DNA of 64,000 nucleotides from Psammoneis japonica. Taxonomy: Eukaryota. Position 1 is the stretch's first letter. Each line of letters begins with the position of its first letter. The notes beneath the pieces are model-generated. The model saw nothing but the letters and a program-made list of their open reading frames with translations, ran no database searches and had not been told where the DNA came from. The DNA is taken from the NCBI GenBank assembly GCA_008632985.1, contig QPGO01000138.1, positions 1 through 64,000 of the forward strand. The letters run 5' to 3'. The translations under genes and the position numbers were made by a program. Of the stretch, positions 5,150 to 62,500 are shown in pieces.

Positions 5150-6010
5150 GGGTGGAAAAGAGGATGATCCTGTGTTCACCAAGAACCCTCAAGATCTGGA
5201 TGTGATTGAGTGACTCCCATTGCTTGATGGCATTGACAAGGACAAAGTTGCTGGACAATTGCCCAGACAAAAAGCATCTCAAGCATCATCTGTTCAGTGC
5301 AATGCCCACCATTGCAAGAACCCAGTGCTTTGTGGCAATGCAGCTCATGCCACCGGCAGTGTTTCTGGGCAAGGCATCAACTCGGCTCTCTCTTGCCGAT
5401 GCATCAGCCTTGTCTGCATGCCTCAACCCCTTCTGGTTGCAGCACGAACAAGGATCAAGGATCCATGGTCAAAGATGCAATCATGCAAGAAGCTCTCTTG
5501 GCACATTCTCAGTCCAAAGTTCCAGAAGGCAAGGCACCGTGGTGTGAGTTGTTCTTTGGCAATGAAAGCAGCACTCCTGTTGGAAAATGGATCTGCTCGG
5601 CGCTCGCCACCACTCAAGATGCCATTTTTCAAGGCAAGCCAGGAATTGGGCACATGCCTCTGCAAACACTCTTGGCATCTTTGTCGACACTGTTTTCTGA
5701 CACTGTTTTCTGACACCTGACGTGATCATGATGGAGACTTTGACACTGCATTTCCCACTCCGGAGGAACGGAATGAGTGCTTGATGAGTTTGCTCAAGCA
5801 ACGCACTGCATGACATGGGGTTGTTTGGAGGTTGAGGCAATCAATCCATGAGACATGCACTGTGCTGTGCTGCTGGAACAACAAGTTGGTTCCCTTGTTC
5901 GAACTGCTTTGTGCTCTTGATCCTTGATTCGCGCTAGAGCGGTTGCTTTCCTCAACCTCTTGCATTCGTCCTCATTGACGGAGTTCTCCAAGACAGATTG
6001 TCTTCCATTT
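5150..6010 (-). pseudogene. Decayed ORF of unknown family
   Basis: Protein-like minus-strand text (KMPRVFAEACAQFLACLEKWHLEWWRAP...LWTENVPRELLA*LHL*PWILDP) interrupted by TGA stops that could derive from CGA. Confidence 0.35.
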
Positions 6011-28900: not shown

Positions 28901-31900
28901 CCGGACTTAGCTCTCGCTTTCCAAAATCACCACCTGGGTTCATTGTTGCAAAAACTTGAAAATTCTCATCAGCTCGTACTATATGATGTTGTAGGTCATC
29001 CTCGCCCGCGCCATCATCACTCTTCTCAGCCAAAACAAGTGTACGAGATGGTTCTAAAACAGAATTCAATCTTTCCAAAACCGCATCATCCGCGAGGCTC
29101 ATTTCGTCCAAAAGGATCATTTTGCCATCTTTCATTGCCTGGACTAGCGGTCCATCAACCCACTCGAAGATTGCTGAGTACCTCACGTAAAGCCTTTCAA
29201 TCTCATTAACTCGCCTTTTCAGTGGAGCAATCGGTTTTTGAGCATGCGGAGAAGCAACGGAAGCACCAGTGGCCAGCTTTCTCCGTTTTGGAGTGTCGCC
29301 TTCTGTCCTCTTGTTTAACTGCGCGGTTTCAAAAGACTTCGACACCTGTCGAGTTAGCCGTATCATCGCCTCTACGTCCTCGTCCGTTACAGCGCATTCT
29401 CCCGTCGAAGCAATTGAATAATTGTTAATCGTTTGGCTATTCTCTCTGTTGCATGCCTCGGTTCTGTCACGGGATTTCGCGACAACTTCAGGAATTTCAA
29501 CACCCGGTCTGAGTGCCTCGTTTTCCAACAGATTTAGTAGTCCTACAACACGCGAAAGCATTTCGATGGCAATCAAGTTTCGACCGCGAACCGGACGAAG
29601 ACCTCCCAGAATGTCGGATGTTTCTGTCGTTGCATGGCAATTAATTGTAAGCAAGTCCATCTCAAAAACGGTGCTCAGCCACTGCACGACTGTTGTCTTC
29701 CCGCAACCGGTATCTGGTCATTTCAATGCAAAGCACAGCAGGTTAGTATGAATCCTTCAATTTACATTAAAAAAAACAAATGGTCAAAGAAACAGTCCAC
29801 ACCTCCAACCAGTAAAACCGGCTCTTTCTGCTTGACGCATCGCGAAACGAGAGTTAGCAGTCGCAGAAGAGACCTCGTTGGCGCCACAGACGCAGTTAGG
29901 TCGGACGATGGTGCTTCGCCTTTTCTGACTCGGTCCATGAGTGCCCGCGCTTCGCTAGATTCACCGTAATACAAATCATGGATATCAATAGAAACTTTCA
30001 AATATTTTTCAATCTCTTCTCGGACAATTGTGGTTTCCTCTGTAGTTCTCAGTCTCTCCGCTAATAACATGTAGCCTTCGTGTGCAAGCTCAAGTTTTGT
30101 GGTGGCCCTGCGTTCCGCCCATCGAAGCAAGTCACGAGGGGTGATAAGCCCGTCTTTACCAAGAAAGATGCCACTTTTACTCCGCCGATACCGTAATCCG
30201 TTCATCACTTTTACAAGAAGCTTCGCGTGAGACGGAGGGCATTCGCACCTAAGCTCTAAAATAGTCGAAAGTTCGTCAGCGGGAATGTCACCCATGTGCA
30301 ACTCTATGAAACGATTGCGGAAGGCGCGAGAGAGTGGCTTTCTGCCACCGTATACGCCACTTGGATTTTGCGTCGCAAACAAACGGAAGTTAACGTGAGG
30401 CTTGACGGTCTCATTTGTTTCTGGTAGGTACAGCTCTCTGTTGTCGTCAAGAAGGCGATTCAAAGCTTCGAGAACTTCACTCGGAGCCAAATTCAACTCA
30501 TCAAGGATGACCCAATGCCCCAGTCTCAAAGCACGAACAAGAATTCCATCACGAAAGGAAAGCGATCCACTCGAGTCAGCGGAGTAAGACCCTGTGTATT
30601 CCTGCACGTCAGTGTGCTCGTGATTGTTGATGCGAACACATCGGTGACCACAACGAGCCGCGAAGTATTCCACAAGAGTTGTTTTTCCAGCACTCGTTGG
30701 GCCTTCAAGAAGTATTGGCCATGGTCCTGACGCGACTGCTCGCGCTATTCTCTTCAAATGAATTGACATCGAAGGCGTTAAAACGAACTTTGAACCTCCA
30801 GGAACTGCTTTCTCAGCCCAATCTTTCGGTTCCAGAGGCCCCGCTTTGATCCAGAACGGCTTGACAAGAACGAATTTGGCGTCTTGGCTCCGCCCACCCG
30901 GTCTTCGCGAGGGACGATCGAGTTGTTCTTTTGTAAGGTCACCTCCTAAATCCTTCTGGAGTCTTTTTTGCACAAGTTTCGTTGACGCATCGTCGAGAGG
31001 ACCTTCAAATGAAACCTTGAAGCCTTCCAACATGGCCCGCTTTAGCGGAAAACGCTGTTGAAGGTATAGGTTCTTCGTAGCGGTCAACGCTCTACATAAT
31101 GTCCGCATTGTGTACCGCGGCTTCTGGCCTCCAGCATCTACAAGAGATTGTTCAGCAAGTTCTCGGCACCGAATATACACGTCCACAGCTGATATCGAAG
31201 CTTCACTGTACTCAGATGCATTGTTACTAGGCGAAACCACTCCATCAAGGTATTTAGTCGCCACCGCTCGCAACTCCATGGGGTCCAGCAGCTCATCGAC
31301 GTACAACTCTGTGAATCGAGACCGAATGCTCGCAGGGAGGTCCTTTTTGCCCGCGTCAGTGGCGGGATTCATAGCAGCAAACAACCGAAAATCGCGATGT
31401 CGTTTCAGAGCTTTTACATCCCCTCTCTCCGAAAGTGTCACGCTCCCAGAGGCATCATCCAGTAGACTACATAATCTTTGCAGAGTTTCCGACGACGCGA
31501 GATTTATTTCATCTAGCAGGACCCTGAGAAAAACTAAAATAGTCAGTACAAAGCAAACCATGCAAAATTGACCGACACGTTTCCTACCCACCATTTCCCA
31601 TGCTGAAGAGCATCAACAAGAGCACCTTCCGTAAACGCAAAAGCAAGGCCAGAATCTGCGGCTAGTCGTTGCTGCTCAAAATGTTCAGACAAGGACTGAA
31701 AATGTTTCCAATCATCCAAGCTAGTAACATCCCCTCCACCCCGTTGGGAAGGAGATTGCTGCATTTCTTTCACCTAACGACAAGAAGACGAAAACGTGAG
31801 AGACAATCGTGCAAAAACACAATGAGTGGGTCTCTATTCCTACCTTTTTCACGCCCAACTTTGCTGCTTTTCGGAAAGACTGTGACAACCTCTTCCACTG

Positions 31901-34849: not shown

Positions 34850-35690
34850 CAATGTTTTTGAACTGGAGTGGCTTGTGTTGCGTGCATGGGGCCAACAACA
34901 AGAACTGTGCGAGGTGGGGAGGGGGGGGGGTTGACGAGCCCGCTCCTCATTCTCAGAGCAAAGGAGGAAAAAACCAGAGGGGAGCTGCCAGCTCCTGCAC
35001 CAGAGGAGAGAAGGTGTGTGCTGGGTGTCTCTGCTGAGACATGTGTGTGCTCTGGATGCTCTCTCTGGAGTTGATCACAGTGGGGGCATGGACAAAACAG
35101 AGAGTGTGGGGGGCTTGGACCCAACCATCCTTTGGAGCGCACTTGTTGTCCTTGAAAACAGCACACAGAAGAAGTTGTGGCAGCAAAAATGGGACACTTC
35201 AGCCAGGCTCTCTGTCAACACAAAAGATTCTCTTTGCTGTCATGCTTTGGCCAGGCTCTCTGTCAATGCAAAAGATTCACACTTTGCTGCTGTCATCTGT
35301 CAAGCCCGCTCCCATCCCCAGGTGACGCTCGTTTGCCTCGGGTTCAGACAAACCACTGACCCACGATCCATCATCGACAGTCATTGAATGTCTGGAGTTG
35401 CACTTCTCTGCACATTTGCAGAGCGCAACGACAAAGCAAGAGATGTGAGACAAAAAGTTCATCACTCTGCACATCCTGTGATGTCCATGTGCGCGCGTGA
35501 CAAGGCCTCGCCTGTCAGTCTCCGTCACTTTGTTGATTTGTGTGTTGTGCTTGCTGCCTGTGTGAAACACACTGGATTCAGTTGGTTTGTTTCAGATTTT
35601 GAAGAGAATTGAGAAGAGAAAAAAAGTGGAGCCGGCTCCGCATGACAGTCGAGTTTTTCACACCAGCGCCGCAAAAAAAGGGACCCTCAC
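34850..35690. other. Hypermutated repeat island B
   Basis: TA essentially absent and CG reduced; internal duplication ccaggctctctgtcaa(ca/tg)caaaagattc at ~35203 and ~35251. Confidence 0.7.
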
Positions 35691-36177
35691 GCAAGAGAGG
35701 AAACAAACGATCTGAACTGACCAATGGCGCTCATTGAGAACAAAATGGCAAATGAAAATCGAAACAGCGGTCGGCATTCAGCTGAGAAGCTTCTGGAGCA
35801 AAGCCAACAACCGCCCCCATCAACGACAAGACATCGAAACCAGCACATGTGGAGAACGACGGAAAAAGACACACCACAACAAACGGAGTGCTGCACATCG
35901 TGCTCTCGATGATAATGTTGCACTTAGCACCTTCATAAATGCCGCATCATCTCATACATCATTGTCAACTTCATTCTCGATTCTTGATGATTCTTGAATC
36001 CCGCAAATCCCAAATCCCGGAAATCATCATCATGCGCGATGGCTGTCGCGCACGACATTCCGTGCCTCTCCGTCAACCGCGACCCAAAACGAAACAAAGA
36101 AGGCACGACGCGACTCCTCCCTCCATCCACGACTGCAACTGACAAGCTTCATCATCTCCGTCGTCACATCGGAACCG

Positions 36178-37142
36178 ATGGCTCACCCTTTCACCAACAA
36201 GCACGCATGGGAAGCAAGGGGCGGTGATGCTGGAAACGTGGTGATTCTTACAAGGGGCGGAGTCTCGACGACAGAGGTCAAAATGTCAAAGCCCACCGCG
36301 GAAGCACCAGCAGCTGTTGATTCATTCGCAGGCGCACGCAAAAAGCACAAAATTTCAATCGTGGATCCCATGAACCGATTCAATTCCATGTCTCATGAGG
36401 AGCAGATCGCATCCTTGCCATTTTGTCTTGTTGACAAAGAATTGACGCTGGAAGAGTTCCACGCTCAATGTGATGCTCTCGAAGGCAGCGGGTGCTCTCG
36501 CTGTGAGTTTCGAGACGGTGGTGCCTAGATTTACGAGGCACCACTTGCTCTACATGATGACGCGCGGGAGAAGTTATTGTTGAGCTTGTTAGGCAGATGG
36601 GCGATCGTAGTAGAGATTTCAAGGTCTCGGCAAGCCCCAGGTGCGATAACAATGATGCCAACTGGTCCTTTGAGCCGGATGGATCGCTGAGAATTCGCGG
36701 TTTTCGTCCAGGACCCAACCATGTTGATGCTGCTGACAGCTTAGGAAACCGATGGCCAAATCTCATTGTTGAAATAGCACATTCAGAGACTGAAGAGCAC
36801 GTTCGTGCTAAAGCTTTGGCTTGGTTAGACACAGCTGAGAACCCAGAACATGGTGTTCAACAGGTGATTGTCATAAAGATTGGATATACGGTGCGTGGAG
36901 ATGGCCACAGGACAATGAAAGCTTGGCGGTATGAGCGTGGCGCAGATATCAACCCGGTGCAGGAAATGGAGTTTGGAAACCACGGTCCGAACAACGGGGC
37001 CACTCTACCTGGATCTCCCGGGATGCAGCTCCATGTCCCCATTAGGTCCTTGTACCTCCCGCTTCCACCGCCTGATGAATTGGGCGAAACACTGGATCTT
37101 GATTTATTTTACATTCGGAAAGTGATCGAGGAAGCATTTTAG
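36178..37142 (+). pseudogene. Uma2-like PD-(D/E)xK restriction-endonuclease-fold gene, disrupted (TAG at 36526-36528, frameshift ~36565)
   Basis: EFRDGGA*IYEAPLALHDDA..GEVIVEL, EPDGSL, WPNLIVEIAHSET..VRAKALAWL, VIVIKI match the Uma2-family pattern. Confidence 0.65.
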
Positions 37143-44234: not shown

Positions 44235-45045
44235 TTTCAAAAAATAGAAATACTCTGTCAAAGGTAGGGCCAAAGGTATTTATGGTCTCAACACAGTACA
44301 GTACATGAACTATGACAGCAATCGTATGGCAGCAGAGTTTTCACAGCAGCGCAGACGGCATATTCAAGCACATTGAACATGGTCGGATCCGACGTTCCAC
44401 GACGCGACGTTCCGAACGAACAAACCTGCGCGCGCCGCGCGAGTGTGCAACGCTTTTGAGTCGTGGGCCGGGAGCGAGAGTCGTCGTCGCAATGCACGAC
44501 TCGACTGACGACGCAAGACTTGCAACGATCACCGATGGATGTTGGAATGGATGGTGTGGATGGGATCCAGGATCTAAATCGCGACGCCAAAAAAAACAAT
44601 GCTTGTACTTGCCACTGCACTCAGTGGAGCACTTTAGTGCAAGAACAACAAATGATGAAAACAGAGAAACATGAAGCTGCTGCTGCCACAAGTTGTCAGA
44701 GCCCCCCCCCCAAGGAAGGAAATTTTGCGTCAAGAAAGCGCACACCAAAGCTCTGCAACCTTGCAAGGTGCTGTCAAGACCATGGGCTGCAGTGTTTTTG
44801 GTTGAGCTTCATAACAGTGGGGAGGGCACTCTTGAAACAAATCATGGTGTCGCAGTTTTCAGCAGAGTGAAAAAGCACACGGCAGCTCTCGAGCCTCCCT
44901 GCTGCTTGACACAGCCAGCGCCGCTCTGTCTGGCAAAGCTGCATGCTTTTCCACAGAGCATTTCCAATTGACATGCATCAAACAGTCAATCTAGAGATCA
45001 AATCTGTCTGTGTGCTTTTCTGGGTGTGCCAGTCGTGTCCAAGAG

Positions 45046-45664
45046 CTTGGTTTGGTTTTGCCGCGGGATTCCCCAAAATTCCCCGGGATTGCCACAAGCA
45101 TGATTTCCCAAGGAATCACCATGAATTGCGCTTTGTCACATGCCCATCCCACACATGAACAAAAAATTGTGCATTGGGAATTCCCCGTGCTTCCCTCTCA
45201 TGCATTTCCACACCTTCTGCGTGCCGGGACGCTTGTGTGCAGATCCACACTTTTTTTCCTTCTTGTGTCGTGCGGCCCCAAATGCAAACAACAAGTGCTC
45301 CAGAGCAAAGGATGGGGCACAAATGGAGCTGCATGTGAGCAATGCCAATGTGCGTGATTTAATGGTGAAGTTTGTTCTTCCCTTGCTCTGCCACAAGGGG
45401 CCGTTTTGTGTGTCGATTTGTCGATGCATCCGTCATGGTCGTTGCCCGGCTGGGATGAAAACAAGAAAAAAGCACACCAGCCTAACCCAAATCAAACGGG
45501 AATTGCCGCAATGCACTTGTTTTTTGTTGCCCTCCCCAAGCCCTTTTAGTCATTCCTTCCTGCCAAATTGCCCTCATTTCCCGGGTGTTCCCCAAAAGGG
45601 TGAGGCAATTCCCCCTTGCCCTTGCCATTTTGGGGAATCCCCAAATGGACAAAACCAAACCAAG
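45046..45664. mobile_element. Non-autonomous TIR DNA transposon (MITE-like, 619 bp) with target-site duplication
   Basis: Perfect 15-bp TIR cttggtttggttttg (45046-45060) / caaaaccaaaccaag (45650-45664), second 15-bp inverted block gggattccccaaaat; flanking direct repeat tccaagag at 45038-45045 and 45665-45672. Confidence 0.8.
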
Positions 45665-45799
45665 TCCAAGAGCAAGCACTTCTTGTTTTGTGTGCTGCAG
45701 AGCAGCCCCCTGCCTTTTCTCAAGGGCTGCTTGTGCAGGACATGAGTTCACTTGGAGTTTGATGCTTTTGCAACCATCTGTTTCTGCCATTTGGGAAAA

Positions 45800-47700
45800 G
45801 CCCTCAAAACAAACAAGAAAAGAAGTTCTTCAGCAGCGCAGCTGAGGCACCAGAGAGCAGTCCTTTGCAGAAGCCATGCCTCAGAAAAGAAATTGCAAGA
45901 AATGTGAGCTGGCAAACCTGCCAACGTTCTGCTTCAAACTGAAAAGGGTGTGAATCTTGCAAAATGTGACATGGTGTGGTTTGAAATGACAATGTTCAGC
46001 ACCGCTGCACTTTCATTGGGAAAGGGATGCTGTGTTGATTGGGGTGTGCAAAGGCAGACAACTTCCTCCATGACATCCTGCATTTTGCACCCCCAAATCC
46101 TTGCTTCATTGACCCCCTGGAGAAGGACACTGACAGTGTTGCTCTTCAAGAAAAAAACCAGTTGAGTGTGCCACAGAAGATGCAAACCATGCATTGGGGG
46201 CACAGATGCTGATGGCACAGATCCAAAGAAGCTCTCACTGGCTTTCCTCCAGTTTCCTTTGACAGTGAATCTCAGCATTCAATGTGCTTGGCTGCCCCAT
46301 CAGTCTGCACAATTTTGCTGGAGATGTGAAGATGACGTTGCTGCTTGAAGAGCTTGAAGAAGTGCAATGTTTTTTGTTGACTGTCTGTGATCGTGCACTT
46401 TGCTCATGCAAGCAAGGGATGCAAGACTCATCATTGAAATGACGGGGAGTCAAGAAGAGACCTTCACAAATGTGCTTCTAGACAGCATTCGCCTGTTGAA
46501 GCATGTGGCAGCTCCACAATCAAGCCATGCTTGATTTGTTCAACAAGCCAAGGTCTGTTTTCACGAGCTTACAAATTCAATGGAGTTGCGGTGCCACTGT
46601 GCAAACCTGTTCCCGGCCATTCCATCTTTGCAAGAGATTGACAACAGCTCAAAGAATTGGCACACAACAAGTCAATGAAAAGTGCACACACTTGTTTTGC
46701 TTCACAAATTCATCTCCTCCTCACACAACTGGCACTCTGCCTTGAGAAACTCAGGGTGCATCAGCGCAAATTGTTGAAGCAGCAAGAGTTTTTTCAGAGG
46801 ATGCCTCAGCAACCACCCATTGCCTCGGTCTTGACCAAACTTGTTTTCACAATCTTGGGCATCTTCCATTGACAATGGAGCATCCAAGAGCAGTGTGATG
46901 GGATTGCCTTTCTGAAAACAGCACCCAGGTGGCCATCCACAAAGCTTGGACTCACATTGAATGCCTTCCCCATCATGAGCCAACTTTTTGATTTGCCTCA
47001 TGGTTTGTCCTGAGTTGTCCTTGCAGACTCCATCATGTTTCAAAAGAAATTCCTGCATGAAAAAGGGAAAATTTGAGCTGATGATGACTGAGAAAGCAAG
47101 TGTGCAATGACTGCATGCCTTCATCTTGAACAAACAGTGATCAACAACACTTTTGCCAAAGTTTTGCTGCAAGGATTTCTTCTGTTCCTTGAAGAGGTCC
47201 CAATCTTCTCATTTCAAGGTGCTTGACCTCCTGCTTTTTCATTGCCTTGGCTCCTCCTCCTCTTCAATGATGGAAAAGATTCCTTGGTGTTCTGGGAGAC
47301 ATGTTTTGAATCATCATCATTGTCAAATGACAGCCAGATGAGAGACTCACTGTTCTTCTGGAGCCACCACTTTGATTTACAACTTGTTTCAGGTTCGATT
47401 GTCCTGGGATGCTTTTTCTTTGTTGGTGTCAGCTGTGGCCCCCCGATTGGTTCCAGGCCCAAACTCTTCAAGTGTTGTTCATTTTGTGCAATCCAAACAC
47501 AAGTCGTTGCTTCTCACATTCACTGAGTTCATGCTGATCCATCTCATTGTTGATGTCCTCAAAACACTTGTTCTCTGTCTCTCTGAGTGTCTCTGTCACA
47601 ATGATTTGACAGAAAGGAGGGCATTGCCACTCAAGGGAGGGCACAATCCAGTTCATCAGCAGAAAAGGCTGATGTTGGTGAGAGTGGAGAGAGAGAGAGA
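45800..47700 (-). pseudogene. Large decayed ORF of unknown family (possibly TE-associated)
   Basis: Consecutive protein-like minus-strand fragments (47471-47214, 47172-46702, 46453-46235, 46278-45934), Tyr-free and C/H-rich. Confidence 0.35.
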
Positions 47701-47712
47701 GAAAGAGAGAGA
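47686..47712 (+). repeat. (GA)n microsatellite
   Basis: ggagagagagagagagaaagagagaga. Confidence 0.8.
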
Positions 47713-48675
47713 ATTTTGTCACAAATTAAAAATGCACTCCCAACTCCCAACCAACACAAATGTCATTTTCTCCTGCCAACATCATGACTCTCATCTCAAT
47801 GCAACAGCCAGCAACAAACACAAAACTGGGAGTGCAGAAGTGGCCACGTGTCCCCCATGTTGCTGGTGGGTGCACGTGAGGCTGTCTTGGACATTGTCCA
47901 CAATGCAAACATGGTGGAAGGCTCAAGGTCAATGACACACACCCCAACTTGGTTTTCTGCCCAGCAGGGCACTGTGTTGGTGAGCTGCCAGCTGACCTGT
48001 CCACTTTGTTGCTTTGCAGCAGAAGTCTGTGTGCATCAGCTGATGGCCCTTTTAGCTTGTTGCATTGCACAGATCTTCAACCTCACTCCCAGGCATTGCA
48101 AGCAGCTTTGCTGTCACACTCTCACTGACTGTGGGTGTTCATGCTGGGAGATTCATTTGAAGTGGGTGGAGTGCAGCACACATGGCTGTTTGTGTGCTCA
48201 AAACATGCACCGGCTCTCACAAACTTGCTGAGTTGTTGTCAGAGATCAATTTCACACATGGCTTGAGGCAGGCACAAACAAAAGCTTGTTTGCACAGGAC
48301 ATCAGAGAAGAAGATGAAGCTTCTGGTGGAAAGCAGCCATGTGTGGCCCACTGAGTGACCAGAGCACATTGGACAAATGAGTGGGTGCATTTCTGAGCAT
48401 GTGGCTCTAAACACTCTGGCCCTGATTGTGGGGCAAAATGTCTTGTGCCAGCCTTTGATGATGCCACCAACAAATGAGTGCAAAACATTGCAGCAGAGCA
48501 TTGGTGCACAAGCAACTGCATCCCCACGGCTTGCTCCTGGGCCAGCTTTTGCTTGAACAAACTTTTAAGCAAGGGCACTTGTGGCTCACATTTCAAAGAA
48601 AGCAAAGAGTGGAGGACTCTGCTTTGCTGCAATGGGCACTCTCTCATTGTTTTTTTTAGAACTCTTGCATCTTCT

Positions 48676-48755
48676 TGCTGGTTTGGCCATGGCAACAGCA
48701 TTGCTTGCCATGTGTCCTGTTTTGTTGCTGGTTTGGCCATGACAACAGCATTGCT
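48676..48755 (+). repeat. Short tandem duplication
   Basis: ttgctggtttggccatg(g/a)caacagcattgct twice. Confidence 0.75.
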
Positions 48756-50954
48756 CTCTTCCCGTTTGTGTGGTGCACATGTTCAAACCATGGCTTTTGC
48801 AAACATTTGGCTGCTCCTGCTGGTTGGTGCCACACCTGCTGCCAAAAAAACCCATGCTGGGTCAATCTTGCTTTGTTTGGCAAGGTCTTTCAGCAAGCAC
48901 TCAAGGATGTTAATTTCTCATTTTCTCCAAAAACTCATGCTGAGTCATTTGGAGCAGATTTGGTGCAAATTCTGCTGCATTTTTGGGGAAGGTGAATGAT
49001 TGAAATGAACTCTTGTGTGAAGAAAGGGGGGCAAAGCACTGGCACTTTGTGCAGACAATGGGGTTTGAGGTGGAAATGTGGCCATTGAAGTGTGTCCACC
49101 CACTTGGTCATTTCACAGTCATGTCCTGCAAAACCTCCCTGATCACAGCTGTTTGTGGCAAGATGTGGTGCCAGAGGCATTTGGACAAAGTGGTGTGATG
49201 TGGGCAAAAATTGGGTGCCCCACACCAGGACCCAACAGAAACAGGTGCTGATTGCCACATGCAATGCACTGGCATTGAAGCATGGCTCTTGGCAAAACAA
49301 GGAGTTGCTGCAGATTCCTTGCCACCACCTTGGCTTGGCCACAATCCTGATGACATGTCACAGTGCACAGCCACCAAATGGTCCAAACAATCACCAACAC
49401 ATGAACATGTCTGACACACAGAGCATGTGCTGCAGCATGTTGCTCACAATCCTCTCCTCAACTCATGTGCTCTTTTGACATTGCATCTTTTGTGGAGCTG
49501 CAATGTTGACAATTGACAACATCAACACAAGGTGAAAATCCAAAGCCATTGATGCAGGTGCAGCTTGTTTGTTGTTTTTTAACCCCACATTTTTTCAATG
49601 CCCAACTGACCAGTGTTTTGCCTTCTCTTTCACTTGGATCCCCCAGGCATCAGCCTTGCTTGTGTGGAGCTCTGCTTGAGAAATGAGGAGCGCAGCATCA
49701 TGTTGAAACTCTCAATCTTTGAGACATCTCTCTTGACACAGATTCTTTGGAAATGGCTGCATCTCTTTTGGGAGACAGGCACAAAAGAGTTGACTCATGT
49801 TCAACAATCCATTGCCAGAGTTGTCAACTCACTCTTGACAAATGACAACCTTGGGTGCCATGTGTTGGAGAGGTTTCACAACAACCTGCCCTGTGTCATT
49901 GGCAAGATGCTGAAGGATTGCTTCATCCCAAGCATCTTGTTGCCTTGCAAACTCAGTCCAAAGATCTGCTGCTTTCCTTGCAGCCACACCACATGGTGCA
50001 TCTTGTGGCCACACCCATTCTTTGCCAGCATGGCAGCAAGTTTTGGGAGCTCACACTTGCAAGTTTTGCCATGCAACAACAACTTGCTCTCACTGTCATG
50101 TGCATCTGTGTGGCTCTTGCTGGTTGTGGGTTTAGAGGCTTTGATGTTGTTGGGGCACAGATCAAACCTGGGTGGACCCACCACTGGGCCATTGTCATCC
50201 TCATGTCAATGCCCCCCTCTGGCACAAACGCTGAGGGCATCATTTCTTTCCTCAGCACAGGAGCACTTGGTTGTTGGCTCACCCACATCTTTGCAGTGCT
50301 CCTCTGCTTGCTTCTTTGCTGTCATCATGACCATGATGGCAATTTGTGGGTTTCCATTTTGCAGGTCCTCCTCCTCCTCCTTCTCCCATTGCTTGCCTCA
50401 CACATTGAGCTTTGCACTTTGATGCAGCCCGGCCTTTCTCTGCCTTTTTGTGAGTGCTGAGTTTCTTCATTGTCTTTGATGTAAGTGCAAATGCAAGACA
50501 TGTGGCAATTGATTGTGTGTTGTGGCAACACTGAGCACCTTGAGTTGCAAGAGCAGAGAGGGGTTGCTCAGACCCCATGTTGGCCAAGACATTGTCAGCA
50601 CTGCCTGTTTAAAAAGCAATGCTTGTCTTCACATGCAGAGCAGCTGTGATTGCAATCAAACTTTGGCCAGGGTCTTGCAAGCCAAATGAGACATCCTCAG
50701 TGGACAGCTGAGTGTGCAGCGAACCACTGGCACACACAGCAATTGCGCTTCTGTCTGGAAGCCCAAAGAGCATGAGCTGTTTTTTTTTTTTTTTCATGGA
50801 AATGGTGCAAATCCTCCTCCACATGTGCACTCTGCAGGAGTTTGCACTTGCCAAGCAAAACTGGCAAAGTTGCTTCACCACCCATGAATGACAGCACTCT
50901 GCTCAACAAACAAGTTGCACCATGTGTGGCACCTGCACTCAACATGAATCACTG

Positions 50955-51560
50955 CCTGTCTGCCCATCTCTCTTTGCTTGGCATTGGCAATCATTGCATG
51001 GAATTGACTCCAAGTGGGGCTTTCTAAAGTGGTGAGAAAAAAGAAGAGTGAAACCTGACTGGAAAAGGAAGCAAGAAGCAGACAACTCTGGCAAGAAGCA
51101 AAGCATTTGCTGCTTTGGACAAGCTCAGAGGAAAGCAAAGAAGTGGAGCTCAGACACAAAGATGAGGCAACAAAACAGAAAGACATGCCCTTGCAAGCCA
51201 CTGCAAAGATTGCAAGCAATCCACACCACAACATTGTCACCTGGTCAAGCTTGCCTGTCATTTTTCACAAGGATCCCATGGTTTTGAAGCAAGCAACAGT
51301 TGCAGGCAATTTTCCATTTGCCAGCCACAAGTTTTGAAATCAGCCCTTTAAAAGGTGTCACCAGACACTTTTGAGAACTGTTGATTGGCTGCACTCAAGG
51401 CCTGTGAAAGGGACCTTTTGATGGAAAGAATTTCAGAGAGTCTTTTGTGGACATCCAAGGGTGATCACACACCCCTTCTCCTCCAACAAGCAGATGATTT
51501 TTTTCAGTTGTTTGCCCTGCCTGAGTCATTTGCAAACAAGATTTTTGGCACACCTTGGGA
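50955..51560 (+). pseudogene. Hypermutated, internally deleted paralog of the adjacent 52.3-kb gene
   Basis: Collinear with 52262-52770 (e.g. KDEATKQKDMPLQA..KDPMVLKQATVAGN..AALKACERDLL vs KDEVTKQKDASLQA..KDPMVLKQATVAGN..AALKACERDLL). Confidence 0.85.
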
Positions 51561-52355
51561 TGCACTTTGACTTTGTGAACAAGGATGCTGTGCCGCTCAA
51601 AAGTGTCTTGTTCTCTGTGCAAAGACAACAGCATCTGTGTCTCAATCACGACTGTCCTTCACTCTTTTGCAGCACACGAGTGTCTTGGGCAAAACAATCA
51701 TCTCTGGCAGATGTCTTTTTTTCTTAAAGCAGCCACAAGTTGCACTGCCTTGTTGCTGCATTGGGTGCTTCAGGACCACACAGCAGCAAACACACAACAG
51801 CTCTCCAGGAAGGCAGGCAGGCGCCCAAGTTTCGCACAAGTGCTGCCCTTTTTGCAGCCACCCCCAGCACACAGTGGCACATGGCACAGAGGGGCAGTGT
51901 CCTCAAACCAGCAGACTTCAAGCCCAGCCACTCTCTACGGCAGAAGGGTTACACGCCATAATTGTTGGCACAGCGAGCACCAACCGCAATTGTGGCGCTG
52001 ATCCGTCCTCTCTCGATTTTCACAAAAATGCTGCAAATCTGTCCAAATCCGCTTAACCGTGCCACTTTCGACGCGACCTGACAGATGGCCAGACTGTCAT
52101 ACTACCGGTGCCGGCCGTGCGTGCCGGGCGGTAAGAAGCTCCCGCGCGCGCTGAGCGCGCGACATTCCGTTGCTTTCTGATTTGAGATTCCAGATTTTTG
52201 TCGTTGTTTTCGAGTTGTTCTCATGCCACTTATTTCCCTAACCACTAAACTGCTGCAATCGTTGCTGCCCCATCTCATCCTTGCTTCACATCCGCAATTG
52301 GCTGTTTGGAATTGACTCAGAGCGGGGCGTTCTAGAACGGCGAGAAAAAACAAGA

Positions 52356-54106
52356 ATGCAACCCGACAAGAAGAGGAAGCGAGTGGACGACGACTCTGGC
52401 AAGGAGCAAAGCCGTTCGCCATCAGCATCTACTCACGAGCTCGAAGACTTGCTCAGGCAGAAGGAAGACGAGCTCAGAAGGAAAGAAGAGGAGCTTAAAC
52501 TCAAAGATGAGGTGACAAAGCAGAAAGACGCATCCTTACAAGCCGCCGTGAAGATCATATGTGATCCATCCCCTCGTCATTTTTCCTGGTCCGACTGGCC
52601 TGTCGTTTTGCGTAAGGACCCCATGGTTCTGAAGCAAGCGACAGTGGCAGGCAATGCATCAGTTTTTCGATCAAACGTTTCAAAATCAGTTCTTCAGAAG
52701 GTGTTGCCAGACATGCTTGAGAACCATCGATCGGCTGCGCTCAAAGCCTGTGAAAGGGATCTCTTGAAATGGGAAGAAGTGAATCCCACTGCGGATGAAT
52801 GGCGCGAATCGATGCCTTTATCCGTGAAGGCGTTGAGGCATGGCATGGTGGGAGACATTGCCGATGTGCCCCTCTTGACGAATCCAATTTTGGCCAATGC
52901 GTTGAAGGAAGGAAAAGTGGAGTGGAATCGCATTCCAGCGCGTTTGCAAAATGACGCAGAATTCTGTTGCCTCGTGCTTGACCCGAATGGAAACCATGAT
53001 GTTGAAAACTATGACTGTCGCCATTTTTCGTACGGGTCCAGTTTTCACAATGTTGTGATGAACATTTTTGACCGTTTTCCTTGCCTTTCTCAAGATCGCC
53101 AGGTTTGGGAAAATGTTTTAAGCTCTTGTTCAACTGCCGTTCTTGGTCTTTTCCAGGAAGAGCGCTTGCCACCCTTTCGGGATCTTGTGGAACGCGCCTG
53201 CGATGAGAATTGCGATCTAATTGAGTGCATTGATCAGACATCATTTGAGGATGTCGTTCAGATGGTGACAAACAAAGATTCAAACTGCCTCTTCCGTGCG
53301 TCTGCAGAGTTCATTGAGTCGCATCAGGACTTCGTGACCGAAAAGCTCAATGACGTGCACATTCATGATGTTGGTCGGGAAGACAAGGACATCCGCAGCC
53401 GACGTTGTGGGATCGAATTTCTTCAAATGAACATTGAAGTGTTCGCAGGGCGGATTCCAACAGACATGTGGAATGGGGATTTTGGGGCGTCGTGGCTTCT
53501 TAAGGGGCTTCCAATCTTACCACCACATCCAGTCGAATGGAAAAGAGACCATGAGAAGCTCTTGCTGGCAGTGAGGAACTGCCCAGTTTATGATTGGATC
53601 GTGAGATCGCTGCGTTTAGCCCCCGAGCAACTCAGGGGTAGTTCCGACTTTATCAAGGAAGTGATGGAAAGCAACCAATGTCTTTTTGAAGTTGCTTTGG
53701 ATAATTTGCGGAGTGGCGATTACAAATTGGCTATTTGGGCAATGGGTGACCCATGTTTTTTCCGCAAGTGGTCAGAGTCCACACGGAGATGGCAAGAACG
53801 TTCATCCATCTGGGCACGACTCCTTTGTTGACGGCAGAGAGATTTGGAGAATGCCTGAGTCGCGCTAAAGAGGAAACAGAAGCTCAAGAGAAATTTGAGA
53901 GAGAATTCGTAGGGGCGGCTTCTGTTGATGCCGAGCTGAGAAGGATGCCGAGAGATGTTCTAACGATCATAGAGGATTTCGCGGGGATTGCCAATGGCGA
54001 ACCTCTCCGCAACATTCGGAAAACAGTGAAGCTCATTGACGAGATGAAAGCCGCTGCTGCCGCGAACCAAGGCCGTGGTGACACGACGAGAGCGGTTGCT
54101 TCGTAA
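52356..54106 (+). CDS. Lineage-specific DUF4116-like repeat protein; frameshift around 53750-53830
   Basis: Long ORF with repeats such as IPARLQNDAEF, PVEWKRDHEKLLLAV, APEQLRGSSDFIKEVM; C-terminus continues in ORF 53753-54106; ATG at 52356. Confidence 0.55.
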
Positions 54107-54599
54107 TTCGCAGATGTTGTGCCACAGGGGGAACCAGTGCAGTGCTCGTTGTACAAAGCATTTGATTTTGTAGCGGAAGCCCACTTGCACCGATGATTCA
54201 ACAAAATAAAGCATTGCTTTTTGTGTGTCCTTTTTGCCAGTTCAATGCACCTCCCTTGCTCTTCGAATGCATCCAACACTGGCAGAATGCCGCACGACTC
54301 CAGCCGAGTGAATGGCACTTTAAACCAAAAGGCGATGCATCTCGCGCCATGCGATTTCCCATGTGAGCATTTCTCTTTCGAACAACCCATTCGATCGCGC
54401 AAGCAATTGGCCGTCAAATGCAACGAACGAAAAGCAGGCAAGCAGCCAACGCAGAACTGTTCGGATGTTTTCGGGGTGAAGATGCACCCGCACCGAAGAA
54501 ATTGTACATCTCGTCATTCAACTTAAAGTGTCTTTGCCCTGCATCCTCTGGGGGGAACAACCGCCGCATCTCTCACTTCAGCCCTTCTCTCACGCATCG

Positions 54600-57500
54600 G
54601 GACTTTCACCAAATGCTGGATCTCTCATTTCAGCCCTTCCCTCACGCATCAGCTTGCACCGAATCATGTTCTTGGACATGGTCCAAAACAAGCTGCCCCA
54701 TGCAAACAAAGTCAGACAGTTCCAGATGCACCTGTGCAGACAACCTTGTACAGCACATTCCACTTGTTGGTTCTTTAACTGCCAGCATGCACATGTTGTG
54801 CTGTTGCAACATGTGTTGCTGAAGATTGGACACAACAGCAATGTTTTGTGTTGGCAGACCAATGTTGATCATAAACTCCTCCATCTGCTCTGGGGCTAAC
54901 AAAGACACATTCCACAATTCAAAAGTCCACTGGTGACTTTGTGGGACACACTGGCAATGCCATCTTTGCTCTCAGGCACCAACGCATGGCATGCAGATGC
55001 CCTTTGGCTCAGCTGTGTGCTTGGGGTGGCTGCATGATGGCTGCAGAAATTGACATTGGGCACCTCTGCTTTGATCATCCTCAGCACCCCTGTTGTCAGA
55101 ACATCTAGATCACAGACATTGATGACAACCTGGATCAGTTGAAGAAAAGACAGTTGGCTTCTGACATGACTCACTGAGTGCAACACATTGGGAAAGAAAT
55201 TTCTCTTTGCAGTGAATCATTTGGTTTGCACAATTTGTCATTTGGTGTCAGTGGGTGCCTGTTGTCATGCAAGTTTTGCAGTTTGCACTGTGCCACAGCA
55301 TCCCACAGCCATTGCAGCTCACCAAGGCAAGTGCATTGAATGGTGCAGGAAGCCCAGAGGATTTCCTTTTGGCAACATTGACTTGCCAGCTCAGTGCTCA
55401 CTCCAAACAGTCACCATCACTGCACTCAGTGCTCACATGTGTGTTGACCTGCACTGAGTCAGCTGAATGCCTGCACTGTGAGTGGCAGCAAGAGGAGAGG
55501 CAGCAGGAGCAAAACAGCCAAGGCCAATGATGTTGCAGTCTTCTCAGAGGTGACAAGAGCCAAAGCAGGTGCTCCAACAAGAACAAGATCATGACCAAAA
55601 CAAAAAGCACTTTCAGCCTGAAACAATGGAGTTTTGTCATTCATCAATGAAAAGCAACTCTTGAAATGCAGCATTCAACGGCTTCAAGAAAAAGGTTTTT
55701 TGATGCACACTGAAGGAAGATTGCCAAGGCATGCATTTGGCAAGGTCTTTGGACATGAAATGCAAGGATTTTGGTGCTGAGAAGGACCAAGATGATCACC
55801 ACTGGTGCAGAAAAGGAACATGACCAAGGCATGCATTTGGTGAGGTCATGCTGACATGTGGTTTTTGCCGGAACAATGACCAGCAATGACAAAGCAGTCC
55901 TGGAAACCACATGAGAGCCTCCAAGGGCAAGGCAAAACACGCAAGTGACAGCTGCACAGAGTCTTGCAAGAAACAAATGATCAGCGTTGGTCAAGCTTTG
56001 CCAAGGGCAGTCTGCAAAGGATGACACCTGGCAACCCAATCACCATTGATGGCTGTTCCATTGCTGGTGGATTTTCCAATTTTCCAGTTTTGGTGATGTG
56101 GTGCAAAAATGGATTTCCATGTGGTTTTGCATGTGCAGCTTTGCACGAGGATTTGCACTGAGTTTCATGGTGATCTCTTTTGTTGCACACACCTGCTCTA
56201 GCTGGAGTGCACACTCTGAGCTCAAAGCTGAAAAAAACCCAAACAGCTCTTTTGTTCTGTGCATCAATCAATGCAACACAATGGGTGCTCAAGGTGGCAG
56301 TGTGGTCCTCCACAGCATTGCCTCCTTTTCCATTGCAAATGTTCTAAATGCTGCAAAGCATCTGTTGGAGGTTTGGCAATGCGGTGGTCTGCCAGCCATT
56401 GCTGGTGTTGACTCCAGTTGGATTGGTCTGAGGGGGCTTGCTCCTTTGGCGGCAACATTGTTGCACACCCTGGGCCAGGTGTCACATCACTTGTGAATGC
56501 CAGTGTTCATGCAACAATGGTGTTTGACCCCAAGACTTGTCATCATGCAAAAGTTGCATCAATCAAGCAGGCTGGGGAGAGGGAGACGGCTTGTGCAGCA
56601 AAAGCCCAGAGTGCCGTGCATGGCTTGAAACCTCAGAGATCACCTCACAACTGTGGAAACCAGATGTTGTGGAGGCGTGTTGGGTGCATTCATTGGAAAG
56701 CAGAAAACTCTCCAATCAAAAGTTAAAGCTTGTGAAACACAAGGATCAAAGAAGCTTCCTCCAGACTTTCACTTGCTTGTCATCAAGGAAGCACCTCAAT
56801 TGCAGCCATCAAACTCAGTTCTTTGCATGACAGGAGACTTCCAGGCAGATTCAGTTGCTGTTTTGCAACTCAGTTTGTCACTGTGAAGCACAGATTGTGA
56901 TGGGAAATGACTCAGAATTTTCTTTCATTTGTGAAGAGCGGTTCTGATGTGATTTCTCCATTCTCCTTGTGCTCTCCTTTGTCACCTGCTTCTCTGGCCC
57001 TGCCCTCTCTGGGGCAGGTCTTCAGGGGGGGGGGGCAAGGGCTTGAATGTCCAACTCACGGAGGGCGTTGAGCTTTGGTGGAGTGGGCAATGAAGCTGAG
57101 CCACATGTGGACATTGATCATGCAGAGCTTGAGGAAGCTGTTTCCCCAGACCCAGGTGCTCCTTTTGCTGCTCTTTTGTCTTTGGCATGTGGCAACCAGG
57201 ACTGGGCTCCATGAGTCAGCAACTTTGTTGTGACAGGAGATGATGAGGGAGCACCCCCCAAGGTGTTTCTGAAACAAGGGCAGAAGACACATTTCCTTTT
57301 TTCTGATGCACCCAGCAATGACTGCAGCATCATCATGGTCAAAAATTTGACAGACTTGTGGGCCCTTTGTCATGATGGTGGTGTGATGCATGAAGCATTG
57401 CAGGCAGGCAAAGGCCAGATGTTGTGTCTGTGGCAAAGTCTCTGCCAGCCATGCATGTGCAGCTGTGATTTCAATCCCTTTCAACAATCAACAGCTCCAG

Positions 57501-59170
57501 TCATTTGACTTCTGCTTTGCACCAACATGTCAAAGCATGCTTGGAAGAGAATGTCCAGGGAGAGCAAAGTTTCAAACAAGCAAAAGTTGTCAGAGATCCC
57601 TGTGTCTAAGCAGGAATGACATGATCCACTGAGACCCCTCCCCCCAATGGGAGAATCGTGACCCCAGTGAGTCTGGGCACACTGTTTTGCTGGTGAACAG
57701 TGCAGTGGTGTGTTGTTGCTGCCACCTGGCATGCAGGAGGGACAATGGCATCCACTCAATGTGTCTGCCAAATGCCAGAAAAACAAAATCCGTGCAACAT
57801 TCTTGGTGAGCATGTCGCTGCAGTTGGCAGAGCAATGTCGTTGGGGTCCATGGACAAGAGAAATGGACCGGGAGTCTTCCAGAATGTTTTGGTGTTGCAG
57901 CATTGTTCCAAAGACAAGGACAATTTGCTGGGAGTTGCAAGGGCAGTTCCCACAACTTGGGCATCTGGGGAAGGAGTGGGAGCAGATGAGAGGTGGCAAG
58001 GCCATCAGCAACAGCATCCAATGTGGAAGTGATGCATTCCGTCACTGCAGGACTTGGATCCAATGGAGTGGGAGCCATGGTTGCAGCCAGAGAAGGCATG
58101 GATGAATGATGTGTTCTCCGAGTTCCTTCTGGACCCCAGCAACTGCACAATGAGCAGCTTCTGACACATTGGCAGCTGTTTTAATGTGACCGGCCGCCTG
58201 CACCTGGGCAGCATCATTCTGAGAGATAAGTTTTGGGCTTGGAGGCCGTCCAGTTGATTCCCAAGTGCATCCACGAGACGGTCCTTTGCAATGAATCTTG
58301 CCTCAATGCTGGTGGCGGATGATGGGACCGCAGCTGAGGAAGTCAAAGAATTCATGGTGACATTCTCACAGTCTTCGAGGATGTCTGTCATGGCAGTTGC
58401 AACAGCGAGACCATTCTGAATTGTTTGCTCAGCGGCCATCATGGTGGTGTCCAGAGCCGGGCAAGAGTGAAATCTGAGTCATCTGCCTGTTGTCTCACAT
58501 TGGTTTTTTAATGCAAGCCTGGAACTTTTTTGTGTGGATCGACATGGTCGCCCACAGCACGGATGGCATCCGAGGCAGCATGTTCCCCAATCAATTGGTC
58601 CATTCAGCCACAAAGGATGCCACAATGGAGTGAGTGGTGGTCGTTGTGGTGCAGATGCATTCAAGCATTGCAGCATCCACAGCTTTGTAGACTGGGACAA
58701 TTTTCTTGTCCAGAGCCGCAAGAAATTGAGCATCTCATGATGCCAGAGCTTTGTTCACCGCATTGCCGGCAAGGGCAATGGCTTCAGTTGCAGAGCAGCT
58801 TCCAGCAAGCGTGGCGGCAAGCGAGGTGGCGCCGTTTGCACTGGTTGCTCTGATGTGGAGTCTGCCGGAGGCATCGGAGGGGGTGTCACTCCCTCTTCTG
58901 GAGCTGCATCAGGTGCCTCAGGAGTTGCTTCAGCCTCAACAGCATCCTCTGCCATTGGATGCGCATGAGAGGTGTCTTGGTGGCCTCGACCGTTTTGGCA
59001 GAGCAGTCAGGTGATGGGGGATTGCGGCCGCTGCAGGTGGGGCAGTGACCACTGGAGTGCCATCGGCCAACTTTGGTGAGAGGGTGGCCTGAAGGGACGA
59101 CAGAGCAGCCCACCACAAGGACGCCATTTTCGAACAAGTGCTGTTGACAGGCGCCATGGTGTTGGACAAT
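54600..59170. other. Hypermutated repeat island D containing decayed ORFs of unknown family
   Basis: Very few TA, CG-poor core, protein-like minus-strand fragments at ~54230-55200 and ~58000-59160. Confidence 0.8.
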
Positions 59171-59500: not shown

Positions 59501-62500
59501 ATGAATGAAAATTCTAGCCCAGTCACTCCACAACGGGCCAACGGTCGGCCGATAAACGCGGTCAGTGGAAAGAAGCGAAATGCTGAAGCAGCGACACTCG
59601 ATGATGCGTTGCTGTGTGCTTCCCCCGGTGCTCAGCCTCGTAGTCCTGGCACGACGGATCTCATTCATTATGAAAGAACGAGAGCACAAGACGAAGCATC
59701 GAACCCTCCTCATTTTGAATCCGACAGTAGTAGTGCTCGACGTGAATCTGGGTTTTCGGGGGGAGTTGACGAAGCGTCGAGCGTTCAAAGAGACAGTGTC
59801 GATGGGGTCGCGTTGACTGAGGAATTTTCGACGCCGCTTGTTGGGAAACACGGCCACTATTGGTGGACGAGGTACCGTGCAGTATTGAACGCGGATAATT
59901 GGAGCAAACTCGCAAATGAGTTGAAGGTCACGCCCCATATGAGGACGTCGTGGTGCCGGAGCCACCTCCTTTGATTGAAGAGAGAGCTACAATCGACGAC
60001 GTTCCGTTGCCGGGGTCACCTGTGAATGAAAGTTTTGACGAAGATGCGCTGCTTACTGCTGACAATCTCAGTTCTGAAGACAAAGTTATCTACGATTGTC
60101 TACCGAATGAAGACATGAAGAATCACTACCTGCGCGGCAAGCTGCGAGAGATGCGTCAAAGGAAGGTTGCGGAGCAAAAAGCTGAGATTGCAGAGCATCA
60201 AAGGAAGATTGCAGAGCATCAAAGGAAGGTTGCAGAGCAAAAAGCTGAGCGAGAGTTGCATCAAAGGAAGGTTGCAGAGCGAAAAGCTGAGCTAGGGATG
60301 CATCAAAGGAAGATTGAGAAGCGCCTCGTTGAAATCACGGTGGTAGCAAATAGTGTTGAGACGTCGCTACTTGCATTGTCATCCCTTTCGCAAGCCGAAG
60401 GGACAGTGGCCAGAGATACAAAGGATGCAGAAGAAACACTCAAGAAACGGGGAATTAAGCAAAGTCAAGCTGAGGAGTTTGTGAAGGATGCTGACCCAAT
60501 CGTACAGGAGCCAGCATCGCTCTCCGAAACGTACAATTCGATTTTGGAAAATGAAAGAGAGTTCTCAAGCACTTTTGACCGAGAATCATTGAAGCGCTTT
60601 GATGACAAAAAACAAAACCCGCTGCTTCGACTGAGCAATGCTTATGCTGCGGCTGTAAAGTCGACTACGAATTTCACGAAACGACAGGAGTCACATGGCG
60701 ATTTGGAAGGATACAAGATGCGTATTGAGAAGACTGTCAACAAGCTGCAGACTGAATTCAAAAAAGCAAGAGAAAATTGTGAACATGATCCTTCCTTCGA
60801 AGCGGATCTTGTGTTCCCTGGTCCAACCAGCCAAGAAGTTCATGGCGTCCAGCCAGTGTTCAAAGCGCTCCTCGAAGCCATCGGTGACTGTTGTCAAGTG
60901 GCGTATGATGGTAAGACGCATCCGTCCTCGCCACCGATCATTGGTGTATCGGAACAAAAGGAGTTGTATGGAAATGAGAAGCGACGAGGGCGTCGCTGTG
61001 ATATTACGGTTTGGAAACGTGGGAGACACGTTGTTGTACTTCTGGATGGTTTCATGGAGGTGACGTTCGAGATCAAGCCGGGACAGCGTATTGACAAGAC
61101 AGTGCTGGACATGCTGCGCGAAGGAAAAGACCAAGATCTCAGCCACGTAGCCAAGGCGCTACTACATTGCTTGCGCTTCGCAGATGGTGCAGGTGTTCCG
61201 TCGCATGCAACGTCCATAACTGGTTCGCTAAGTCACATCGAGATCATCCAACTCTGTGTAGTTGATCCAGGGAAACCAACCTCTCGCGTCGAGCTACGCT
61301 CATCCGGACCATTACCACTTTTGCCAAAAGATTGTTTTTGCAAATGGTTTGATTCAGATAATTCGCGGCACTCAGAGGCCGTTGATACCATGGCGAACCT
61401 TTTGTACGGAAAGGACGACAACGGCTTGGACGAAAAAGGTATTCCACTTGGCATCAAGGCTCTCTATACAATGATGATGTGCCCTCGTCGTGAGCTCATT
61501 GGTCCCAATTGGGAAAAAGTCTCGGGTTCGCTTGGCGAACTACTTGGTACCGGTACGTTTGGCATGGTCTTTGCTGTCAACGGAAGTGATGATGCTGTAG
61601 TCAAATTGGCCAAGCCCTCCCTATCTCGCTACATCAAACGGGAAGCCGTAATTTTGAAGCTGTTATCGTCATGTGACGATAGACCAAATAGTGTAGGGCT
61701 ACCTCACTTCATTGCATGTGGGCTAATGGAGGTAAATGTTGGGGGCGTGGCGTTTCAGTTACCCGCACTTGCAATGCAACCACGGTGTCAAAACATCTAC
61801 AGCGTATGCTCCGGTTGGTCAGACGAAAAGCGCTTCAGTGTCCTGAAGAAAATCCATAATGGCATTTTGAGTGCTCTGGGCTTTATCCACAAGCAGCATA
61901 ACATTTGCCACCGTGATGTCAATGACGCAAACATCCTTTTGCGTTATCACCCGGAGACTGATGAATGGAGTGCTGTACTGGTTGACTTCAGCGTTGCCGG
62001 CCCGATGTACGAGAATGTCAAGGGCTTTGTAGGCACTCCGACGTTCACTCATCGTGAAGTGCATAAGAATTCCGAATGGATATCTGCCCCACAGTATGAC
62101 GATACAAACCTTGGTTTCACATTAATTGTGATTCTTGAGGGTGGCGTCGTTCCTTGGAAGGGTTTGAGTGACAAGGGCCCACAGAAGGGCACTGATGTGT
62201 ATGATAAGCGAATTGAACAGGCGAACCTTTGTTTGCAGGAGAATGTACAGAACAAGAAACTGGACGCCGATCTAGCGAAGTGCATCAAGGATCTGTTCCT
62301 GAAGGATAAGGAAAAGTTTCGAAGTGCTTGTGGCTGCAAAAAAACACAATGCAGAGGCGGCCGTTGCAGCTGCAGTAATACCGAAAACGGTTGCTCCATT
62401 TTGTGCGCTTGTTGTTATGACAAGCAGAAGGCGGCTTTCTCCTGTTTAGGCAAGCACAATGGTCCGCAGAAGGGGAGCGTCGACGACGTCAAGTTTGATG

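Follow-up and report, generated by a model that had tools for sequence, protein, structure and literature searches.

When a gene adjoins a dead copy of its own first part, and the copy has lost nearly all of its CG and TA dinucleotides, what was the target of the change: the duplicated sequence as such, or the DNA in which it lies? This question is raised by a stretch of 64,000 nucleotides (contig QPGO01000138.1, positions 1 to 64,000, forward strand; hereafter, the window), in which a decayed fragment stands upstream of a gene of the DUF4116 family. A preliminary description of the locus had presented the pair as an intact gene beside its hypermutated duplicate, i.e., as direct before and after evidence for a process that also hits duplicated genes other than transposable elements and that is targeted by chromatin domain rather than by pairing. 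The observation is confirmed and the interpretation is supported in part; the finding is real and informative, and it is weaker than this wording suggested. The reading that we consider probable is that an old dead 5' fragment lies in a block of DNA converted by two context-specific, strand-symmetric transition processes that acted block-wide. The pair consists of the following elements.

50947-51430, plus strand: decayed partial copy of the adjoining gene (leader and codons 1-141), with a GTG start, two in-frame stops and several indels; CG 0, TA 2, TG 44, CA 54
52257-52778, plus strand: part of the live gene that matches the copy (about 100 nt of leader and codons 1-141); CG 28, TA 6, TG 33, CA 41; observed-to-expected ratio (o/e) of CG 0.87
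52356-54106, plus strand: DUF4116-family gene, probably of about 583 codons; CG o/e 0.95, TA o/e 0.21

The relationship between the two sequences is easily recognized. With positions 52000-54600 as a query against the whole window, blastn found two collinear matches on the same strand, one between 52478-52767 and 51133-51421 (74.6% identity over 291, E 5e-55) and the other between 52269-52412 and 50963-51104 (76.4% over 144, E 3e-25). A transition-tolerant local alignment merges them into a single match of 52257-52778 with 50947-51430, in which 365 of 475 columns are identical (76.8%) and the 110 differences comprise 81 transitions and 29 transversions; the copy has a net deletion of 38 nt relative to the gene. 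The collinearity of 50955-51430 with 52262-52770 reported in the preliminary description is thus borne out, and the four pairs of words quoted there all lie at their places. In the copy, the ATG of the gene reads GTG, Gln114 and Arg125 are replaced by stops, and the affected codons include 18 that are gapped, 45 with non-synonymous changes and 18 with synonymous ones. By its sequence, the copy is a partial, unprocessed pseudogene, a dead fragment. The rest of the gene was not found elsewhere in the window in a purine/pyrimidine dot plot of both strands, which ignores transitions. Capture of the copy by a mobile element was considered and rejected, as the repeats around it amount to a single weak family of direct repeats and one imperfect inverted repeat of 28 nt.

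Part of what separates the copy from the gene lies in two kinds of dinucleotide. Among the 24 CGs of the gene that are aligned without gaps, 12 read CA in the copy, 7 read TG and 5 are otherwise changed; of its 6 aligned TAs, 3 became CA, 2 became TG and 1 was kept. Both proposed conversions, from CG to CA or TG (19 of 24) and from TA to TG or CA (5 of 6), are therefore seen. They fall in both orientations (15 CA, 9 TG), and a further 8 steps have TG in one member of the pair and CA in the other. Clustering of CA-type and TG-type conversions, a sign of processive action on a single strand, was not detected (11 runs against about 12 expected, in a hand count with small numbers). Transitions occur at 24.1% of sites inside pyrimidine-purine steps (45/187) and at 12.3% of all other sites (32/260), where neither direction predominates (T>C 9, C>T 8, G>A 8, A>G 7). 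Transversions amount to 9.6% at sites of pyrimidine-purine steps and 4.2% elsewhere. Overall, the process that interchanges CG, TA, TG and CA accounts for about 40% of the 110 differences.

The direction of change was examined with outgroup proteins. At three CG-containing codons of the gene, Arg86 (CGT), Arg105 (CGA) and Arg125 (CGA), Arg is also found in 6, 8 and all 9 of nine outgroups, respectively, whereas the copy reads CAC, CAG and TGA. The Arg residues in the outgroups indicate that CG is ancestral at these codons, and TG/CA is not. When the 45 amino acid differences were polarized with two outgroup proteins, the outgroups matched the gene alone in 16 and the copy alone in 4, while 25 were uninformative; with nine outgroup proteins, 24 changes were placed on the copy and 8 on the gene, with 13 uninformative (binomial p 0.007). 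The changes are thus unequally distributed between the two sequences, although selection on the live gene gives the same asymmetry, so that 24 against 8 is no proof of unequal mutation.

What was targeted is best seen in the composition of the surrounding DNA. In 500-bp windows, the stretch splits into sharply bounded compositional states, and the copy lies in one of several blocks that are nearly free of CG and TA.

44600-51950, no strand: CG/TA-free domain holding the copy, 7.3 kb; CG 58, TA 23, TG 814, CA 819
45068-46135, no strand: high-copy repeat in this domain; summed contig depth about 1330-1430 against 56-68, TA about 0, CG 1-7 per 100 bp
51950-52355, no strand: CG-rich stretch upstream of the gene, CG o/e 1.22, TA o/e 0.43; its left edge is the domain border
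54650-59150, no strand: second CG/TA-free domain, on the other side of the gene island; CG partly recovers from about 58000, TA is near 0 to 59150
1600-5950, no strand: further CG/TA-free block; CG 51, TA 11, TG 445, CA 480

From normal DNA to converted blocks, o/e falls from 1.00 to 0.15 for CG and from 0.54 to 0.04 for TA and rises from 1.17 to 1.83 for CA and from 1.11 to 1.78 for TG, while the remaining twelve dinucleotides shift by no more than about 0.2. Pyrimidine-purine steps sum to 0.235-0.241 in converted DNA (0.235 in 44600-51950) and 0.233-0.246 in normal DNA, and TG and CA counts are nearly equal in all three blocks (814 and 819, 385 and 382, 445 and 480). An unchanged step sum with TG close to CA is the prediction of pure transitions from CG and TA to TG and CA on both strands. 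RNA-level (ADAR-like) editing of a retroelement transcript was rejected as a source of the conversions, which are strand-symmetric (814 TG and 819 CA in the copy's block).

The copy, of 0.48 kb, occupies a small part of a block 15 times longer. Its non-homologous flanks, 50500-50946 and 51431-51900, are equally converted. The borders of the block, at about 44600 and 51950, are sharp (about 100-200 bp wide), and the right one lies 520 bp past the end of the copy, at the edge of the CG-rich stretch upstream of the gene. Since unique flanks are converted and the borders bear no relation to the ends of the duplicate, it is apparently the block, and not the duplicated segment, that was targeted. 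Sequence anatomy, the sole basis for this point, supports the domain rather than the duplicate as the unit of targeting, as the preliminary description had proposed. Nothing at the locus indicates, however, that duplication was the trigger, and its statement that the process hits duplicated genes is not supported in that sense.

The neighboring gene had been called intact. In the window, its uninterrupted open reading frame (ORF) spans 52356-53831 (491 amino acids) and matches the Pfam family DUF4116 (PF13475) at 23.2 bits (E 5e-5), below the gathering cut-off of 24.9; two homologues, P0001 and P0002, bear precomputed PF13475 matches. Full-length relatives of 530-580 amino acids were found in a word search (two) and in an exhaustive search, which gave 56 representatives at E <= 1e-3, including 14 at <= 1e-30. 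Compared with homologues, the window ORF is about 90 residues shorter at its C-terminal side: the frame is broken by 1 nt at 53816 and the ORF then stops at 53831. The missing tail lies in another frame at 53819-54103 (95 codons), where it matches residues 471-563 of P0002 (E 3e-8). Our contig comparison rests on one DNA run, X1, as contigs. The sole X1 contig covering 53816 has one extra C behind this position, which joins the frames through to 54106. Judged from these sequences, the organism's gene is probably whole, with about 583 codons ending at 54106, and the 1-nt break in the window reflects either an error of assembly or a difference between paralogues. An intron was rejected as the cause of the frame change; no fitting GT..AG was seen by eye, and the 1-nt difference in X1 explains the change. 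No mobile-element domain was seen with the gene in Pfam, word or exhaustive protein searches, so that its designation as a gene unrelated to transposable elements is reasonable. An ESM Atlas search gave no usable match.

This gene was also said to have largely escaped the process, which is true for CG but not for TA. Its TA o/e is below the minimum (0.34) of 145 overlapping control windows of 1750 bp (median 0.53) and below the values of ten other coding stretches (0.37-0.80). Codons for Leu, Ile and Val that end in TA number 7 of 106, against 94 of 457 in the midasin gene of the window (p 4e-4). GTA is absent from the 37 Val codons of the gene (27 of 139 in midasin), and GTG makes up 20 of them (30 of 139 in midasin). 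A possible loss of Tyr to His or Cys in the gene was uninformative.

Loss of TA with retention of CG extends beyond the gene. Of the 250-bp windows (256 in total), 175 have a normal composition; CG and TA are both lacking in 52, TA alone in 28 and CG alone in a single borderline window. The 80 TA-low windows are grouped in a few blocks. Examples of the TA-only state are the gene island, the inner edge of the block at 54650-59150, the high-copy repeat in the block at 44600-51950 and, as the clearest case in the window, positions 35300-36500 (CG o/e 0.97, TA o/e 0.07). The two signatures are nested, TA loss covering the same extent as CG loss or more. Two separable processes are thereby suggested, with TA loss the faster or wider-reaching one. 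In the region 34900-36500, TA is about 0 throughout and CG is lost only at 35000-35300; its ORFs have no Pfam match.

The X1 contigs provide a view of close copies and of depth. Over lengths of 0.5-3.9 kb, independent contigs differ from the converted DNA in 0-3 places, and a sequencing or assembly artefact was rejected as the origin of the blocks on this ground. Summed contig depth is at a baseline of 56-68 over much of the blocks, including 46136-48805, and reaches 131-271 over 52010-55747, i.e., 2-4 times baseline; several contigs have skips of 60-360 nt in 52096-52257 and 55224-55752. These sequences indicate that X1 includes additional close copies, or else divergent alleles, of the gene island and of the flank to its right. 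Within the high-copy repeat, position 45479 (CA in the window) and position 45601 (TG in the window) are CG in most contigs of the family. The window and related X1 contigs differ at 196 single letters, and the differences were classified for 40 listed rows, which represent 34 events. Among these listed events, 20 are interchanges of CG, TA, TG and CA. Adjacent CA/TG double differences make up 6 of them; CG is confined to the window in 6 and to the other copy in 4, and TA is confined to the other copy in 3 and to the window in 1. Adjacent differences between CA and TG in nearly identical copies are the prediction of independent resolution of one ancestral CG or TA. At one such place, 52787-8, the invariant Thr145 of the outgroups would fit an ancestral CCT-ACT.

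Several other explanations of the locus have to be weighed. In a process resembling fungal repeat-induced point mutation (RIP), the duplicate, or the whole block if repeated elsewhere, would be recognized through pairing as a repeat and hence mutated. Like RIP, the locus features a duplicated sequence that was inactivated solely by transitions next to intact genes; repeated DNA is indeed present, with a depth of about 1400 against about 60 at 45068-46135 and the raised depth of the gene island, and RIP may leak into flanks. However, RIP turns CpA into TpA and so enriches TpA, whereas here TpA is erased instead of created and CpA is enriched. RIP mutates both members of a repeat pair, whereas the partner here retains its 28 CGs and the copy has none. 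RIP stays within the repeat and the flank next to it, whereas the converted block here, at 7.3 kb, far exceeds the 0.48-kb repeat that it contains; part of the block (46136-48805) is at single-copy depth, and no repeats occur between the converted blocks inside the window. We regard pairing-triggered mutation as improbable. More improbable still is that a pseudogene decayed in the ordinary neutral way, with methylation at CpG as the sole added factor, and that its lack of TA stems from composition or selection. The copies are old (16.5% divergence outside pyrimidine-purine steps), and full CpG loss at such an age needs no special mechanism, but the fall of TA from 0.54 to 0.04, the conversion of five of six aligned TAs, a gain of TG and CA that equals the combined loss of CG and TA, and normal CG in TA-only stretches are not accommodated. 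By a rough estimate, TA loss of about 93% compared with about 9% transitions per base outside pyrimidine-purine steps on one lineage would correspond to an approximately 15-fold TA-specific excess per base, and ordinary decay therefore does not explain the TA loss.

Age rather than protection might also separate the gene from its surroundings. The gene island (about 52010-55750) would then be a recent duplicate or insertion in an old converted block, exposed so far only to the fast TA process, and the fragment near 51 kb would be the relic of an older copy. In favor of this view, the extra X1 depth lies exactly over 52010-55747, the gene is TA-poor but CG-normal, a similar TA-first pattern occurs in the high-copy repeat, and CA/TG double differences among close copies in 52787-54795 imply recent independent resolution of TA or CG. 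Yet the gene is conserved against nine outgroups and the stretch upstream of it is CG-rich with normal TA, while the extra depth may represent alleles or paralogues elsewhere. We consider this explanation unlikely; it is in any case compatible with block-wise targeting and differs only in why the gene retains its CGs.

Block-wide conversion by two processes is the reading we prefer, and a number of observations weigh against it or limit it. Within the pair, only the 6 aligned TAs, a small sample, inform on the TA process, and only about 30 signature sites are informative amid old divergence. Generic old divergence makes up about 60% of the differences, so that the copy is not a clean 'after' state, and the asymmetry of amino acid changes is also expected from purifying selection. 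The claim of direct before and after evidence is therefore upheld as to the direction of change at Arg86, Arg105 and Arg125 and not as to most of the differences; the pair is useful but blurred, and by itself it constitutes modest evidence. In the gene, TTA is not depleted (5 of 19 TTA and TTG codons, against 24 of 83 in midasin), which makes its TA loss partial, and the extra depth might mean that the gene island is younger than the surrounding domain and not protected. As to the origin of the blocks, no repeats link them within the window, and similarity of the block at 1600-5950 to the other two was not detectable. None of 148 ORFs of at least 70 amino acids in the blocks reached the Pfam cut-off (two weak sub-threshold matches were taken as chance), and no viral or transposon domain was recognizable among them; the identified content of the blocks is the host-gene fragment and the unclassified high-copy repeat.

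With these points in mind, the preferred reading may be put as follows. The sequence at 50947-51430 would be an old 5' piece, now dead, of the neighboring gene or of one of its close paralogues, and would lie in a block (44600-51950) in which nearly every CpG and TpA was turned into TpG or CpA by two strand-symmetric transition processes that work on the block as a whole and not on the duplicate as such. The live gene would occupy a 2.7-kb island between two blocks, where it kept its CpGs and lost part of its TpAs at sites tolerated by selection. CpG loss would result from deamination of 5-methylcytosine in a methylated silent domain. For TpA loss, we propose a hypermutation specific to TpA and comparable to that described in Bigelowiella natans, which would act faster or reach more widely, either by adenine deamination or, in an idea of our own, by an oxidized or otherwise modified thymine that mispairs with G and gives the same symmetric outcome.

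The B. natans process is the closest known system and the only described counterpart that we found for TpA loss. According to a preprint (Mettrop et al., bioRxiv, 2026; 10.64898/2026.01.13.699255), 230 of 231 mutations in two integrated viral regions of mutation-accumulation lines were A>G or T>C, all at TpA. This TpA-only hypermutation has a rate of about 6e-7 per site per generation, roughly 1000-fold above background, and an ADAT2-like deaminase was proposed for it. The genome contains 124 TpA-poor, CpA+TpG-rich clusters, defined by a Rho TpA of at most 0.43 together with a Rho CpA+TpG of at least 1.52 (10.64898/2026.01.13.699255). The present locus is similar in that TpA is changed to TpG or CpA on both strands and in that discrete regions are affected; the blocks of the window clear these thresholds by a wide margin. 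It differs in its host, a pennate diatom rather than a chlorarachniophyte, and in its identifiable target, which is a host-gene fragment alone, whereas the targets described there are viral. CpG is also erased here, conversion of CG to TG or CA being equally pervasive in most of the same blocks, whereas in B. natans there was almost no G/C>A/T change; no CpG effect is reported in the preprint, in which a text count did not find the word CpG (10.64898/2026.01.13.699255). Finally, a mutation rate was measured there, whereas here the signature is known from sequence alone.

The CpG component has a more familiar parallel. In the pennate diatom Phaeodactylum, methylation is reported to disappear, and young transposable elements to be de-repressed, when DNMT5a is lost (PMC9998398). 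Methylation-driven CpG decay would likewise give CG to TG or CA changes on both strands, restricted to non-genic blocks adjoining CpG-normal genes, as is seen here with 19 of 24 aligned CGs converted and a domain CG o/e of 0.15. Such decay leaves the TA loss unexplained.

Literature searches in open-access PubMed Central and bioRxiv yielded no account, for diatoms, of either TpA hypermutation or a combined loss of CpG and TpA. By its sequence, the locus presents a B. natans-like TpA signature in a stramenopile, coupled to CpG erasure and placed on a host-gene fragment. If the TA component is the Bigelowiella process, that process would extend to diatoms, which are major primary producers of the ocean, would be paired here with CpG erasure and would act on host-derived sequence besides viral inserts. 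A broader and tentative proposal, to which we give somewhat less than an even chance, is that this pennate diatom has a domain-targeted, irreversible defence by DNA erasure, with a fast TpA arm, an editing process like that of the rhizarian Bigelowiella, and a slower CpG arm. Silenced DNA would then be driven to a state devoid of palindromic pyrimidine-purine steps, the TA arm would also spill onto live multi-copy host genes and reshape their codon usage, and TpA editing would be widespread in the supergroup of stramenopiles, alveolates and Rhizaria (SAR) rather than an oddity of chlorarachniophytes. The gene and its pseudogene amount to a small natural experiment, in which CG and TA are the original states and the unit of targeting appears to be a sharp-bordered block. 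In a culturable diatom, one could test whether these borders correspond to limits of chromatin state or of methylation, whether TA is lost ahead of CG, and which enzyme is responsible.

The window is made up of nuclear DNA from an intron-poor eukaryote. Midasin is encoded at 16980-31612 on the minus strand, and the other genes encode an E2 component of a 2-oxoacid dehydrogenase complex, ATG14, an F-box protein, a WD40 protein and a kinase. The best named matches of a 616-amino-acid piece of midasin are from Cylindrotheca (68%), Pseudo-nitzschia (66%) and Phaeodactylum (64%), and these matches identify the host as a pennate diatom, i.e., a stramenopile.

Minor features were observed in some of these genes. 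Around the E2 acyltransferase ORF (8403-9803), positions 9199-9518 and 9674-9993 form an internal duplication of 320 nt with 69.6% identity, the second copy of which extends about 190 nt past the end of the ORF; it looks ordinary and may reflect repeated lipoyl or E3-binding domains. The region of the WD40 ORF contains one N in the assembly, at 42116. The N-terminal part of the kinase ORF, at 60144-60323, contains short tandem internal repeats with offsets of 63-105 nt and identities of 76-85%.

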